DNA from: a virus
Taxonomy: Duplodnaviria; Heunggongvirae; Uroviricota; Caudoviricetes
Length of the DNA stretch: 46,345 nucleotides
Direction: 5' to 3' (one strand)
Virus record (IMG/VR): IMGVR_UViG_3300031370_000003
The position numbers and the translations under genes are program-made. This document shows positions 12,207 to 41,056 of this stretch, one piece after another; position 1 is the stretch's first letter, and the number at the start of each line of letters is the position of its first letter. Under the pieces are notes generated by a model. That model was not told the DNA's origin. It was given only the letters and a program-made list of their open reading frames with translations, and searched no databases.

Positions 12207-12821
12207 ATGATTGCCGCAGAGAAGATTAAAAAGCGCGAGCGTGACAAAGAGCTGCGCGACCTGTGGCGCACTCCACGATGGCTATTTGAGGCCATTCAGA
12301 AATACCTGGGCATCCAGTTTAACGTTGACGTGGCTTGTGATGCCGGCAACGCGCTGCTGCCTGGCTTTATCGGCAGGGAAAGAGACGCGCTTGTTTGTGA
12401 GTGGGGCGAGCCAGGCACAAATGCTTTTCTCAATCCGCCTTATTCCAAGATTAAACCCTGGATAGAGGCTGCTATGCGTGAGCAGCGTCGCGGCGTATCG
12501 ACAGTAATGCTGATCCCCCAATCACTTGATACCGCCTGGTATGAGTTCGCTACTGAATCAGCTAATGAGACGGTGGTGCTGACCGGTGGGCGTGTAGCCT
12601 TTCTGGAACCAGACGTGGAGCTGGGGTTGGTAGAAGTACGTGAAAACCCAGGTGGTAGTATGCTGGTGGTCTTCCGCGGCCACTGCCACCAAGCTGGGCA
12701 CATTCTTCGCAAGGTTTCACTGCCAGTAATGAAAGAGCTGGGTGGTTATGATCCTTTAAAAGCAATCAGAAAGAAGCGCCCCTCCAAGAAGAAACAACCC
12801 ACGTTGGAGCTGGCAGCTTAG
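12207..12821 (+). CDS. dam: Phage-type DNA N6-adenine methyltransferase
   Basis: DLWRTP, VDVACD, catalytic NPPYS; phage Dam family layout. Confidence 0.88.
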   Translation: MIAAEKIKKRERDKELRDLWRTPRWLFEAIQKYLGIQFNVDVACDAGNALLPGFIGRERDALVCEWGEPGTNAFLNPPYSKIKPWIEAAMREQRRGVSTVMLIPQSLDTAWYEFATESANETVVLTGGRVAFLEPDVELGLVEVRENPGGSMLVVFRGHCHQAGHILRKVSLPVMKELGGYDPLKAIRKKRPSKKKQPTLELAA

Positions 12822-13004: not shown

Positions 13005-13238
13005 ATGGCACACCCTACCAACGTAGTGGCACTGATCGACACTGATTTTCTCGCCAATGCACGTCAGCTACTAAAAAGCCGCGATCAGTCATTCACGCTT
13101 TATGAGTGGGCGCTTAAGGCGATCCGCGGTGGGCAGCATACAAATGAAGTTGAGCAGCTGATCGGCGAGTTAATCAACGAAGTTCATGGGCTGAATGTTC
13201 AACTTCACGGACGCACTGAGCAGAAAGCCACCGCTTAA
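13005..13238 (+). CDS. Small hypothetical protein
   Basis: RBS AAGGA; 77 aa. Confidence 0.7.
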   Translation: MAHPTNVVALIDTDFLANARQLLKSRDQSFTLYEWALKAIRGGQHTNEVEQLIGELINEVHGLNVQLHGRTEQKATA

Positions 13239-13270
13239 AATAGTAACGCTGTTAAATAGTCATTTAGCTA

Positions 13271-13299
13271 TTTACCGTCTGATCTACCAGTGCTAACAT
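13271..13299 (+). promoter_or_regulatory. Sigma70 promoter facing the ORF-free structured region
   Basis: TTTACC-17-TAACAT with TG extension. Confidence 0.6.
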
Positions 13300-13304
13300 C
13301 CCGC

Positions 13305-13730
13305 CGTCATTTTTCGGAATGGCTCGGCAGATGGGTGGAGGATTATGGCGCTGGCGTCTGCTTAAAGGAACCTGTTACCAGCGATCGAACCGGGACGCGA
13401 AAGCCGCTCGGGGAGAGGGAGAATCAAAGCAGGAGAGAAAAGGAGTCACTGTAGGTTGTCGAAACCAGACGAGTTCCAAGAGGTTGGTGTCTGGTGTTCC
13501 CCTCCTACAGTGAGGAAGGATCTCGATTCTGGGGTATTGCTGCCCACAACCTTCCTAACCGGGACTGGCATTAGATCTCGGTCATAGTTTCTGGCTATGA
13601 TTTGCTCAGGTTAGCGTGGGTTTCAGCGCCCTGCTTCCCTGGGTGAATTATATCCAGAACACACAACCTCTCACTCCGTTCGAGGGAAACCTCACATTCG
13701 TTCGGTTTCTCACTTCTAAACCCATTCTGG
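13305..13730 (+). ncRNA. Candidate structured non-coding RNA or origin element
   Basis: No credible ORF; promoter upstream; stems 13446-55/13504-13, 13464-70/13489-95, 13513-19/13550-56, 13582-87/13595-600. Confidence 0.35.
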
Positions 13731-13844
13731 GTATTGTATATATTTTTCAATTAGTTAATTGTTTCGCGCGAGAAATTTCCGAATTTCCTTGATCTATGTC
13801 ATTCATCATATATGATTTGGTTAATGGAAATTATGGGGTGTTAC

Positions 13845-14435
13845 ATGAAAAAGTTAGACATTAGTGATCACATTTATACCAGGTTGGCTAAACACGCAGT
13901 TGGCTTTGAAACCCCTGAAAGCGTAATCGAACGACTGCTAGATGCTTATGAAATTGTTCCGGGGCAGAAGCCGAAATTGACCTTCATACCTGAAAACGAA
14001 GAAGAATTTAAAGCAAGACTAGTTGAGTCTCGTCATGCTTACGTCGAACTCAGAATGGAAGATGGCACGATTCAGGCCGGTGAATGGAGTGCTCATTCAT
14101 TCAAAGATAGCTCGAACTTAAGAGCGAATATCTGGTCGGGTTATCTTCGGAACTGGTCGAAAAGGGGAATCGTTGCAGCAACTTTTGAGGTCGTAATGTC
14201 CCCAAACAGTGAAGACAAAATAGTACAATCCGCTGAATTCGAAAAGTATGTAATTAACCAACACGCAAGTGGCTCCATTTCCGTTAAGGTTAACGATATG
14301 GATGCAAGACCAGTCAAACCAATGCTGAGGAAGATAGCTGAGGCACTCGATGTCAGCATCGTCAATTCAAACAACAATGATCTAAATACGCGCCAGCTTG
14401 GGGCATCCATTATCAAAGCTCTTACCCCCCCATGA
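13845..14435 (+). CDS. Multi-domain putative DNA-binding protein with a SeqA-N-like ribbon-helix-helix
   Basis: MKKLDISDHIYTRLAKHAVGFETPESVIERLL resembles the SeqA N-terminus; AT-rich. Confidence 0.6.
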   Translation: MKKLDISDHIYTRLAKHAVGFETPESVIERLLDAYEIVPGQKPKLTFIPENEEEFKARLVESRHAYVELRMEDGTIQAGEWSAHSFKDSSNLRANIWSGYLRNWSKRGIVAATFEVVMSPNSEDKIVQSAEFEKYVINQHASGSISVKVNDMDARPVKPMLRKIAEALDVSIVNSNNNDLNTRQLGASIIKALTPP

Positions 14436-14459: not shown

Positions 14460-14495
14460 TAAGTAGTTGACTACCTACATTTAAAATATTAAATT
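14460..14495 (+). promoter_or_regulatory. Motif-A operator (14460-14477) overlapping the -35 of a sigma70 promoter
   Basis: TAAGTAGTTGACTACCTA; TTGACT-17-TAAATT. Confidence 0.7.
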
Positions 14496-14608: not shown

Positions 14609-14920
14609 GTGAATATGTTGTTGTCTTACGCAGACGTTTTGACCGGCATTAAAACCGGCGCCTCCTTCGCACGTCAGAAATGGCCTGCCGACACATCCAT
14701 ACGACTCCGCACCGGGGTGATCAGCTCAAGCGAATACCAGAAAACTGAAGGCAAAGTGTTCTTCGGCCTTCCACTTAACCTTTTTGAAGTCCACCAGCCA
14801 GACGGTTACACCGTATTTCCTGGTTTAGAGATGGTTCTTCCAAATGGCAAGGTGGTTGATTACCTAGCTTCGATGATTGACCAGCTCGCCTGCGATTGGA
14901 AACGAGTGGAAGCTAAATGA
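14609..14920 (+). CDS. DUF2829/Tad2-like protein
   Basis: SYADVLTGIKTGASFARQKW...YLASMIDQLACDWKRV matches the family pattern xAxxxxKxGxxVARxxW...xASQxDxLAxDW. Confidence 0.65.
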   Translation: MNMLLSYADVLTGIKTGASFARQKWPADTSIRLRTGVISSSEYQKTEGKVFFGLPLNLFEVHQPDGYTVFPGLEMVLPNGKVVDYLASMIDQLACDWKRVEAK

Positions 14921-27170: not shown

Positions 27171-27199
27171 TTGTAAGTAGGTAACTACCTATCTAAAAT
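27171..27199 (+). promoter_or_regulatory. Promoter with motif-A operator (27174-27191) in the spacer
   Basis: TTGTAA-17-TAAAAT enclosing TAAGTAGGTAACTACCTA. Confidence 0.7.
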
Positions 27200-32693: not shown

Positions 32694-33218
32694 CTAAAAC
32701 GGAATGATGCGGTCAACCCAATCAAATAGCACCACCAGCTGCTTGCCGCCATCTTGCCTGACATTCAATTGGCCGGCATTGACACCTGCAGATCGCCCCT
32801 CAATTTCTCTACCATCTGCCATGTAGACACGGAGTAGCTTTTCGTTTTGGTGCGCCTTGCGGCAAATCTTGAAGAAGTCTCGCTTTGATGGCTGGTTCAC
32901 CAACTCATCTGCGTTTATGGTCAGCCTTCCCACATAATCAACCTGAACATCTGATGGATTGATGGTTTCAATTACGGCCACGCGCTCAAGAGGTACACGA
33001 ACCCGGTGTTCGTTGTCCGATGAGGTAGGGGTTAAGTCGAGTTTGTTACGTGCTGTTAGAAGCCCATATACGTACAGAGAGAAAACTTGGCCATCCTCCA
33101 GAGTTACCCTTACAGGAATCTGCTTGGCGCGGTAATACTGCAATGATCTCTCGACATCTTTGTAATCGCGAGGCCAGACCTCAGCGGGAATGCCATATGT
33201 AATGTCGGTGATAGTCAT
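32694..33218 (-). CDS. Hypothetical protein with two Sm/Hfq-like repeats
   Basis: VRVTLEDG...VPLERVAVIE and LRVYMADG...VLFDWVDRII. Confidence 0.65.
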   Translation of the reverse strand: MTITDITYGIPAEVWPRDYKDVERSLQYYRAKQIPVRVTLEDGQVFSLYVYGLLTARNKLDLTPTSSDNEHRVRVPLERVAVIETINPSDVQVDYVGRLTINADELVNQPSKRDFFKICRKAHQNEKLLRVYMADGREIEGRSAGVNAGQLNVRQDGGKQLVVLFDWVDRIIPF

Positions 33219-39799: not shown

Positions 39800-41056
39800 A
39801 TGGCCATCCCGTCATCGCTGAGCTTGATTCAGCTGCATTCTGGGCAGATGTCAGTGTTCCAATCACCCCATCGTTTCAAAGTGGTGTGTGCTGGCCGACG
39901 CTGGGGTAAGTCTCGACTGTCAATTTCTAAAATTATTCGTGCGGCCGCTTCTGGCCGCAAACAGCGTGTTTGGTACGTAGCGCCAACGTATCAGATGGCC
40001 AGGCAGATTTTGTGGGATGACCTTCAGGAGACAATCCCGCGCAAATGGGTGGCTAAAAAGAACGACACCACAATGACGATCGTTCTCAAGAACGGTTCGG
40101 AAATTGCACTAAAAGGTGCGGATAAGCCAGATACATTGCGTGGTGTTGCGTTGAACTTTGTCGTGCTTGACGAGTTCCAGGATATGAAGCCTGACACCTG
40201 GTACAAGGTATTGCGTCCAACGCTGTCTTCTACCCGCGGTGGTGCGCTAATTATCGGCACACCGAAAGGCTTCTCTGAGTTCCATAAACTTTGGACGATC
40301 GGGCAAAACGAAGATTTGCAGAAGAAGGGACAGTGGAAGAGCTGGCAGTTTGTGACAGCCGATTCACCCTTTGTTCCAGAGGCGGAGATCGAAGCCGCGC
40401 GGAATGATATGGACCCTAAATCATTCGCTCAGGAATACCTTGCGTCGTTTGAGAACATGTCAGGTCGCGTGTATTACCCGTTCGACCGCAAAACGCATGT
40501 TAAGGATGTGGCCTTTAATCCGAAGCTGCCTATCTGGGTTGGTCAGGACTTTAACATCGATCCAATGTCCTCGGTCATCCTGCAGCCGCAGCCGAATGGT
40601 GAAGTTTGGGCGGTGGATGAGCTGGTGCTGTATTCTTCAAACACCGCAGAGGTATGTGATGAGCTGGAACGCCGGTACTGGCGATCGAAGTCTCAGGTAA
40701 CAATCTTCCCAGACCCTGCAGGCGCATACCGACAACATGCGCGCGGTGAATCGGATGTGGACATCTTTAAGGAGAAGGGTTTTCTGCGCATCGATCACCC
40801 GAAGAAGCACCCGCCGATCGCTGACCGTGTGAATGCAGTAAACCGTATGCTGATGACCGCGTCTGGAGATGTGAGACTTTATATCAGCCCGAAGTGTAAG
40901 GGACTGATTGAATCGCTGGAAAAGGTGATCTACAAACCGGGTTCGCGTGATATGGACAAGTCAGGTGGTGTAGAGCATAGCGCTGACGCCCTCGGCTATC
41001 CAATTCATAGAAGATTTCCGGTTAAAAGTCGTGTTATTCTTGGTGGCTCACGATAG
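39800..41056 (+). CDS. terL: Terminase large subunit
   Basis: AGRRWGKS, VVLDE, IGTPKG, nuclease GQDFN and HSADA. Confidence 0.95.
   Translation: MAIPSSLSLIQLHSGQMSVFQSPHRFKVVCAGRRWGKSRLSISKIIRAAASGRKQRVWYVAPTYQMARQILWDDLQETIPRKWVAKKNDTTMTIVLKNGSEIALKGADKPDTLRGVALNFVVLDEFQDMKPDTWYKVLRPTLSSTRGGALIIGTPKGFSEFHKLWTIGQNEDLQKKGQWKSWQFVTADSPFVPEAEIEAARNDMDPKSFAQEYLASFENMSGRVYYPFDRKTHVKDVAFNPKLPIWVGQDFNIDPMSSVILQPQPNGEVWAVDELVLYSSNTAEVCDELERRYWRSKSQVTIFPDPAGAYRQHARGESDVDIFKEKGFLRIDHPKKHPPIADRVNAVNRMLMTASGDVRLYISPKCKGLIESLEKVIYKPGSRDMDKSGGVEHSADALGYPIHRRFPVKSRVILGGSR

Follow-up and report, generated by a model that had tools for sequence, protein, structure and literature searches.

In a 46,345-nt stretch of phage DNA (hereafter, the window), 570 formerly unannotated and "empty" bases between a 77-aa ORF and a 196-aa ORF hold a real, previously undescribed, large structured RNA, the expression of which is seen at a homolog. 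Window positions 13306 to ~13745 of the + strand very probably constitute the gene of this RNA. An earlier note on the DNA had proposed an undescribed phage ncRNA as one reading of the region, and this proposal is borne out by a conserved promoter, strand-specific covariation, the lack of a matching Rfam family, and a signal from the homolog in a lysogen. As for its role, the explanation that we consider best, and to which we would give about an even chance, is a single-copy core ncRNA gene whose RNA binds a protein in the plasmid state.

By its sequence, the window comes from a Cronobacter-type member of the SSU5-type phage-plasmids. A plasmid of Cronobacter sp. JZ38 is 97.5% identical across the RNA region, and a complete 110-kb IMG/VR genome is 96-97.5% identical over the conserved blocks of the window (~37 of 46 kb), whereas the accessory middle of the window is either 90-93% identical to that genome or unaligned. 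In comparison with an E. coli-type element, DNA similarity of 63-75% runs across most core genes, and therefore the RNA is to be regarded as a core gene and not as an exceptional island.

SSU5-type elements are found often in clinical Klebsiella, E. coli, Salmonella, Citrobacter, Enterobacter, and Cronobacter, and resistance genes have been reported from phage-plasmids in general. The core genome of the SSU5 type, which resides in gut bacteria, includes the RNA, yet the RNA is absent from annotations and from the literature that we found. Its homolog is made in the dormant state, most strongly inside macrophages, and the RNA may offer a handle on the maintenance of SSU5-type elements. For RNA structural biology, an RNA of 435 nt in which conservation is as high at unpaired bases as in the helices represents a rare new object. 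The window itself contributes a divergent clade, the candidate pseudoknots, a strict linkage to the 77-aa ORF, retention of the RNA in a clade without RNase H, and a candidate partner from the FljA family.

Covariation and the fold of the + strand

Base pairing in the region had been described as dense, and it is indeed above chance: the + strand folded with z = -3.0, and 0 of 100 shuffled sequences did as well, as compared with z = -1.3 for the - strand. Covariation across homologs was decisive. RNA copies were collected by pattern scans and nhmmer (the latter recovered all of them), and 86 full-length copies in IMG/VR were reduced to 71 unique sequences and then to 26 representatives at 97.5%. 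RNAalifold placed 99 pairs on the alignment of these 26 sequences (A1), 33 of them with compensatory changes. Pairs were also counted across the 26 representatives in a curated structure, whose 15 helices include two candidate pseudoknots. Standard pairs occupied 99.4% of 2572 cells, as opposed to 35-52% when the 3' partners were slid by 1-3 columns, and 31 pairs had changed on both sides (slid controls, 1-4). In 500 shuffles, the real alignment was never equalled in paired cells, in pairs or cells with double changes, or in covariation score. Collectively, covariation within these alignments proves a fold with at least 13 helices on the + strand (Table 1).

Most of the compensatory changes fall on the split between the window's clade and the SSU5 clade, so that the independent events are fewer than the cell counts suggest, and it is the divergent window clade that supplies most of the covariation. 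Given that pairs 35-69, 83-143, 103-119, 245-254, and 269-293 show three or four pair types, however, the covariation does not come wholly from a single deep split. G-U combinations were found in 315 cells and A-C combinations in 3, an excess that identifies the + strand as the RNA; the opposite-strand reading pairs in 87% of cells.

Table 1. Coordinates of the RNA gene, its predicted helices, its control sites, and the protein-coding genes discussed in the text
Feature	Position	Strand	Remarks
Dam methylase gene	12207-12821		PF05869; followed by the 77-aa ORF and then the RNA gene
77-aa helical ORF, phrog_5343	13005-13238	+	PHROG match, E = 5e-34; constant upstream neighbor of the RNA
Inverted repeat	13253-13274	none	TAAATAG-N8-CTATTTA; abuts the -35 hexamer; operator-like
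Promoter	13271-13299	+	-35 TTTACC (13271-13276), 17-nt spacer, -10 TAACAT (13294-13299)
RNA gene	13306-13745	+	~435 nt; 3' end approximate (+/- 15 nt)
P1, 5'-terminal hairpin	13306-13323	+	GTCATTT-TTCG-GAATGGC; begins at the predicted +1
P2, 12-bp hairpin	13326-13362	+	Invariant GAUGGGUGG; 4 double-changed pairs, 100% of cells paired
P3	13371-13433	+	CCTGTT/AGCAGG; encloses P4 and the purine-rich joining strand; 3 compensatory pairs
P4	13390-13412	+	GAAA loop in the window; 1 compensatory pair plus G-U to G-C/A-U changes
Purine-rich strand	13417-13425	+	GGGAGAATC; 5' half of two candidate pseudoknots
P5, long hairpin	13447-13512	+	CACTGTAGG/CCTACAGTG; 6 compensatory pairs
P6	13513-13556	+	AGGAAGG/CCTTCCT; 4 compensatory pairs
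P7, hairpin	13558-13582	+	5 compensatory pairs
P8, hairpin	13583-13599	+	1 compensatory pair
P9, bipartite hairpin	13606-13642	+	2 compensatory pairs, 3 one-sided G-U changes
P10 and P11, twin adjacent hairpins	13667-13709	+	Loops share UCAC(N)UYCGUUC
3' hairpin and T-rich tail	13720-13748	+	ACCCA-TTC-TGGGT; terminator-like site, probable terminator
196-aa ORF	13845-14435		Downstream of the RNA in the window; own promoter-like site; unrelated to rnhA
FljA-family protein gene	32697-33218	-	Tandem Hfq-like predicted fold; PF03614, E = 9e-62

The stems and loops picked out in the earlier note were all recovered at the positions given there. The 5' hairpin with its TTCG loop is present, as are the nested stems (CACTGTAGG/CCTACAGTG enclosing CAGAC/GTCTG, AGGAAGG/CCTTCCT, and CATAGTT/GGCTATG) and the two copies of the repeat AACCGGGAC (at 13388 and 13557). 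The two hairpins at 13667-13709, with loops TCACTCCGTTC and TCACATTCGTTC, likewise exist, but they are adjacent, not overlapping as had been described. In these twin hairpins, P11 shows 3 compensatory pairs, whereas P10 and both loop motifs are invariant in the 26 representatives. P1 is represented across lineages by at least eight unrelated sequences, each of which forms a hairpin that starts 6-7 nt past the -10 hexamer; these are not alignable by MAFFT.

Conservation extends well beyond the helices, with 108 of 192 unpaired columns (56%) being invariant, as compared with 96 of 179 paired ones. P5 contains an inner CAGAC/GTCTG and the invariant loop motif GAGAGGUUG, and P6 contains an invariant internal loop (GAUCUYGRUUCUGGGR) and an inner helix (13532-13545). 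The candidate pseudoknot partners of the purine-rich strand lie at 13497-13501 (TTCCC) and 13525-13528 (GATT), with 100% of cells paired in each case. Both pseudoknots are tentative, since each of them rests on one compensatory pair.

Promoter, predicted transcript ends, and expression of the homolog

The TTTACC-17-TAACAT promoter that had been read from the sequence is present and is, moreover, conserved as an extended -10 promoter (TGcTAACAT, with TG at 13291-13292). This layout (TTTAnn ... TGnTAnnAT, with TTTAnn as a weak -35) is kept in most lineages, and in the Klebsiella-type promoter the TG directly abuts TAGAAT. The RNA promoter scores below the threshold of a simple consensus scan. 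The neighboring motif, noted previously as TAAATA-N6-TAGCTA (13253-13270), is also there and in fact belongs to a longer inverted repeat, which is a degenerate copy of a palindromic motif repeated in the element. The equivalent position in SSU5 holds GGTAAGTACTTACC, the core of a ~26-bp palindrome, and the full palindrome (ATGATAGGTAAGTACTTACCTATCAT) is repeated in SSU5 within the same long operon, between genes at six places; related copies are found in the window at 14460 and 27174. Only the core is retained in the copy at the RNA promoter, and this may account for the RNA being made while the rest of the operon is silent.

The 5' end of the RNA was derived from the promoter and the start of the first hairpin. 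At the opposite end, the other clade has a different 3' hairpin (CAGGTTT...AAACCTG), for which there are some compensatory variants.

ORFs of 43-64 aa with GTG or TTG starts occur in the RNA region of the window, and one ORF, CYRAN_81, has been annotated at this place in Cyrano, as would be the case if the region encoded one or more small proteins. However, from lineage to lineage the small ORFs read the same conserved nucleotides in different frames, and they are broken by 1-nt and 7-nt indels or by early stops; none of the ORFs is conserved, and the region is non-coding. The substitutions are also of the kind that preserves base pairs, and a search for a hok-like type I toxin mRNA or a small-protein gene found no ORF that stays in frame across lineages. 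A protein-coding role is, in our view, barely credible.

CYRAN_81 provides a view of expression. This 44-aa ORF of Cyrano, the SSU5-type phage-plasmid resident in E. coli LF82, occupies record positions 78657-78791, inside the RNA homolog (78524-78989), and is on this comparison a mis-call. The original study (PMC9928086) listed it among the morons, as a "hypothetical protein". RNA sequencing of the LF82 lysogen by Misson et al. gave 12-fold for CYRAN_81 versus 10-fold for the putative repressor (PMC9928086), and the normalised (FPKM-type) value of CYRAN_81 was 117, compared with values of 9.5 (77-aa ORF), 8.4 (RNase H), and 6.0 (Dam) in the same listing (PMC9928086 S1 Table). The RNA homolog thus stands at 12-14x both flanking genes in the lysogen, in a table that is not stated to be strand-specific. 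It also stands at 8-40x both flanks in all five conditions (PMC9928086 tables), and the highest value of CYRAN_81 (log2 10.3) was in bacteria 6 h inside macrophages (PMC9928086). A discrete transcription unit with its end ahead of the next gene would give such a pattern; transcription must end at the 3' end of the RNA, because the gene downstream of the homolog is at background.

In addition, assembled contigs from 17 RNA runs (7 studies) contain the Klebsiella-type homolog. In two of three RNA runs, the RNA contig had 4-8x the depth of the Dam contig, although such contigs give no transcript ends; the third showed little difference in depth (43 for the RNA contig vs 34 for the Dam contig). 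A raw-read single-cell run had zero reads on the element.

These data also bear on a possible role in cis, in which the RNA would serve the downstream genes (in most elements, rnhA) as a leader, attenuator, or insulator. In one version, the purine strand (13421-13426) would pair alternatively with RUUCUGGG at 13526 or at 13725, and both copies do covary with the same purine position; moreover, RNA-seq contigs continue from the RNA into rnhA. Nevertheless, the gene downstream is variable: most elements have rnhA there, one has a GNAT gene in the opposite orientation, and the window has the 196-aa ORF with its own promoter-like site. Furthermore, rnhA is at background in the lysogen, with the RNA locus 14x higher. 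We consider a cis-acting role to be quite improbable.

Distribution, synteny, and relation to known RNAs

At ~68% identity, the RNA was found in 11 phages (SSU5, Cyrano, and Klebsiella phage-plasmids) and in 492 PLSDB plasmids from Klebsiella, Escherichia, Citrobacter, Cronobacter, Shigella, Salmonella, Enterobacter, and Buttiauxella, and metagenomes yielded 54 further copies. There is one copy per genome. The RNA comprises only two deep clades, that of the window (Cronobacter-type) and the SSU5 clade, which are ~68% identical. No third clade was found in protein-guided scans of IMG/VR and GTDB genomes or with a loose two-motif pattern in metagenomes. The window's copy belongs with the RNA of SSU5-type phage-plasmids, being detected by nhmmer at 491 bits and having the same helices and the same synteny. 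Judging from these searches, the RNA is restricted to one phage-plasmid group of Enterobacteriaceae. As a side observation, the search for a third clade gave one chance match (L212).

Synteny is constant on the upstream side, in that the RNA always follows the Dam and 77-aa genes. Indeed, among relatives of the 77-aa ORF, the RNA lies immediately downstream at 81 of 81 loci. The 77-aa ORF itself, whose expression in the LF82 lysogen is at background, has no Pfam, NCBIfam, or PADLOC family and no informative fold match, and its matches in the Atlas were all sub-threshold (0.81-0.82).

The RNase HI gene that comes next in the SSU5 clade relates to the other reading in the earlier note, a primer-RNA/ssDNA origin. 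According to this reading, the transcript would act as a primer RNA or in an R-loop origin (in the manner of ColE1 RNA II or T4 oriF), hybridising to AT-rich DNA downstream, with a cut by RNase H priming replication. Both clades do have an AT-rich stretch followed by a GC-rich palindrome after the RNA, and the RNA contains G-rich tracts. Still, two 9-mers are the only direct repeats in the RNA region, which also lacks DnaA boxes and a change in GC skew, and the genes on its two sides share one orientation. The AACCGGGAC repeat is not an iteron, because its copies are the 5' strands of two different helices; it is also absent from the SSU5 clade. RNase H (PF00075) was absent from three complete genomes of the window's clade in a search for which the E. 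coli-type control was positive, and the window itself contains no RNase H homolog, although host RNase H could act in its place. In addition, replicon typing assigns the elements to IncFIB (RepA), and the gene annotated as "replication helicase" in SSU5, ~18 kb from the RNA, is possibly part of that replicon. An RNA I-type Rfam match was lacking, and invariant unpaired nucleotides and pseudoknots are unexpected in a primer transcript. We therefore hold the origin reading to be very improbable.

The absence of any likeness to tRNA, tmRNA, RNase P, or an intron, as had been remarked from the sequence, was corroborated with Rfam 15 (4227 models, including RNase P, tmRNA, 6S, C4, RNAI, and introns), a set that we take to include the GOLLD and ROOL models. 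At the gathering threshold, there were 0 matches over the whole window, and at E <= 10 there was only eukaryotic miRNA/snoRNA noise (7-22 bits vs thresholds of 40-71). ARAGORN found 0 tRNA or tmRNA genes in the window, and no description of such an RNA was found in the literature on ncRNA of SSU5/pHCM2. The RNA is thus new at the level of the RNA family, and it may yet work like a known class. By analogy, its closest counterparts would be ROOL, GOLLD, OLE, and raiA in form, 6S and CsrB in proposed action, and the immunity RNAs of P1, P4, and N15 in setting.

Like ROOL, GOLLD, OLE, and raiA, the RNA is hundreds of nucleotides long, has many helices and strongly conserved unpaired positions, and is borne on a mobile element. 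These features (i.e., size, many helices, candidate pseudoknots, and unpaired positions that are as invariant as the paired ones) would suit an RNA that works independently of protein, either as a self-assembling "ornate" RNA like ROOL or GOLLD or as a ribozyme or ligand-binding RNA, and its carriage by a phage would suit it too, as ROOL and GOLLD are often phage-carried (PMC12286853). Unlike those RNAs, however, it matches no Rfam model, and its homolog is expressed in the lysogenic plasmid state; it is also smaller than ROOL and GOLLD and lacks a tRNA neighborhood. Inspected by eye, the alignment contained no conserved self-complementary loop for oligomer contacts, and there was no sign of cleavage or of a ligand. 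A protein-independent RNA accordingly seems unlikely to us.

P1 c4, P4 CI, and N15 CA resemble the RNA in being ncRNAs of the early operon of a temperate element that are made in the lysogen. If the RNA acted as they do, or in the manner of a copy-control RNA, its loops would kiss phage or host mRNA and block translation or terminate transcription. The twin loops contain UUCG, which is compatible with a YUNR U-turn, and offer two identical exposed loops; the homolog is expressed at a repressor-like level in the lysogen. Moreover, the SSU5 and E. coli-type loops are complementary over 11-12 nt to the ribosome-binding region of the SSU5_112 homolog, a site that ranks 12th of 14,755 genome windows by duplex energy in the E. 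coli type. Yet the orthologous site in the window's clade ranks only 588th of 14,582, no complementary own-genome site has been retained across the two clades (in contrast to the c4/CI immunity RNAs), and the remaining own-genome matches are at chance (E >= 0.25). The immunity RNAs known so far measure 60-80 nt and are recognised by Rfam, whereas the present RNA is five to six times longer and matches neither C4 nor any other model. A base-pairing immunity or regulatory RNA is, in our estimate, rather unlikely.

Other comparisons are looser. The RNA shares with ColE1 RNA II a structured transcript of several hundred nucleotides, G-rich tracts, and a position beside RNase H in many elements; it differs in having no RNA I signature or origin features, in the absence of RNase H from one clade, and in its RepA-typed replicon. 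The likeness to 6S and CsrB/RsmZ, which are abundant, stable, trans-acting sequesterers, belongs to the working model only and concerns the twin loops and a candidate Hfq-like partner. 6S is a single long hairpin with a central bubble, whereas the RNA here is multi-branched, with at least 13 helices and no Rfam 6S match; and it differs from CsrB in not being rich in GGA loops.

A proposed protein-binding role and a candidate partner

The invariance of 56% of the unpaired positions points to tertiary contacts and a bound protein. Together with the twin hairpins with the same loop and the candidate pseudoknots, these bases point to a function that depends on shape, be it through a bound protein or tertiary structure. 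We propose that the RNA would act in trans as a stable, compactly folded molecule and not through long base pairing. The twin identical loops of P10-P11 could form a two-fold binding platform, the variable 5' hairpin P1 could serve as a protective cap, and the RNA would bind and hold, or scaffold, a protein in the plasmid state. A protein held in this way could tune the maintenance of lysogeny or host physiology. That the RNA is specifically a trans-acting, protein-binding RNA is a possibility that we place somewhat below even.

The earlier note had also pointed to a tandem Sm-like protein encoded on the same element, and this holds at the level of the predicted fold: the protein is a member of the FljA family, and its own model superposes on Hfq. 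More specifically, the AlphaFold model consists of a helix and five strands, twice (pLDDT 64, from a shallow alignment of 3 sequences), and fits Hfq with TM 0.70-0.84 and rmsd 1.1-1.5 A over 56-61 residues. A tblastn search with the protein retrieved 12 SSU5-type phage records, essentially the RNA-carrying set, and two further partial matches on small fragment records. The co-occurrence carries no weight, because the RNA and the FljA-family protein are both core genes of one phage group. The Cyrano homolog, CYRAN_114, is expressed in the lysogen.

This FljA-family protein may be the most plausible partner of the RNA, albeit a doubtful one. It is similarly speculative, and improbable as matters stand, that the RNA and the tandem Hfq-like repressor could make up a self-contained RNP switch, with the RNA as decoy or scaffold. 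Such a switch would control phage or host translation in the plasmid state and help to keep the element quiescent, and it would represent a phage-borne Hfq-like system with its own large RNA.

Two reports cite the FljA family as a post-transcriptional, translational repressor of fliC mRNA (PMC2652032; bioRxiv 10.1101/2025.10.27.684867). The RNA was compared with the E. coli fliC 5' UTR for both mimicry and complementarity, and both ideas were rejected, as the scores did not exceed those of shuffles in 3 of 4 representatives (215-496 of 500 shuffles reached them). Klebsiella, the main host, is not known to be motile. One lineage (L032) had a nominally unusual same-sense score against the fliC 5' UTR (reached by 20 of 500 shuffles); it was one of eight comparisons, and the other lineages differ.

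The region 3' of the RNA

In both clades, the structured non-coding RNA gene is followed by an AT-rich stretch and then a GC-rich palindrome, with which the following transcript may begin as a 5' hairpin. The palindrome of the SSU5 clade, CACGCACGCGTGCGCACACGCGCG, is an alternating purine-pyrimidine run. The gene slot beyond has different occupants, namely rnhA, a GNAT gene or, in the window, a 196-aa ORF, and it looks like a hot spot of gene replacement. More specifically, rnhA lies directly 3' of the RNA in the SSU5 clade, whereas the window's clade lacks an RNase H gene: a PF00075 match was found neither in its complete genomes G002, G003, and G004 nor anywhere in the window. The N-terminus of the 196-aa ORF matches DUF7557 weakly (E = 2e-4, under the cut-off) and, in NCBIfam, scores just 27 bits with the "T4SS effector SepA family", whose cut-off is 110. 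The ORF has a promoter-like site of its own at 13789-13816. The match to the Tad2-like domain PF11195 in the window agrees with a separate earlier note.

Features discussed in the text (window coordinates unless indicated)
Feature	Position	Strand	Remarks
Promoter-like site GTGAGA-16-TATAAT	13647-13674	-	10/12 match
GC-rich palindrome TTTCGCGCGAGAAA	13762-13775		3' of the RNA, beyond the AT-rich stretch
196-aa ORF	13845-14435	+	Downstream of the RNA; weak N-terminal matches only
Tad2-like, anti-Thoeris-type domain (PF11195)	14609-14920	+	E = 2.5e-7, passes the Pfam cut-off
FljA-family gene, 174 aa	32697-33218	-	Pfam PF03614, E = 9e-62
CYRAN_43, small hypothetical gene	40268-40822 (Cyrano, OV696614)	-	Beside integrase and repressor

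Antisense promoter-like site and dispersed palindromes

The minus-strand promoter-like site lies inside the RNA gene, and its -35 element is formed by the strand complementary to the P10 loop, which is invariant. A -10-like sequence is kept in all lineages (TAATAC, TAATAT, TATACT), and an antisense transcript over P9-P7 from this predicted site is possible.

A palindrome of ~26 bp, ATGATAGGTAAGTACTTACCTATCAT, recurs in SSU5 (at 13779, 23655, 24713, 25908, 30182, and 39169), and TAAGTAGGTAACTACCTA-like copies occur in the window at 14460-14477 and 27174-27195. The copies sit intergenically, spread over the long rightward operon, and may constitute a set of operators for a dispersed repressor of the P1 C1 kind or, alternatively, an intercistronic RNA hairpin.

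The FljA-family protein and a highly expressed Cyrano gene

PF03614 is the family of FljA, "repressor of phase-1 flagellin", and the predicted fold of the window's member is a tandem Hfq/Sm-like one. The gene belongs to the SSU5-type core genome and is also part of it in the elements found in Klebsiella. Since Klebsiella is known as a non-motile genus, flagellin mRNA is an unlikely target of the protein in these elements.

In the published LF82 lysogen table (PMC9928086), CYRAN_43 of the SSU5-type phage-plasmid Cyrano is expressed 723-fold over the prophage background, by far the top value on this element.
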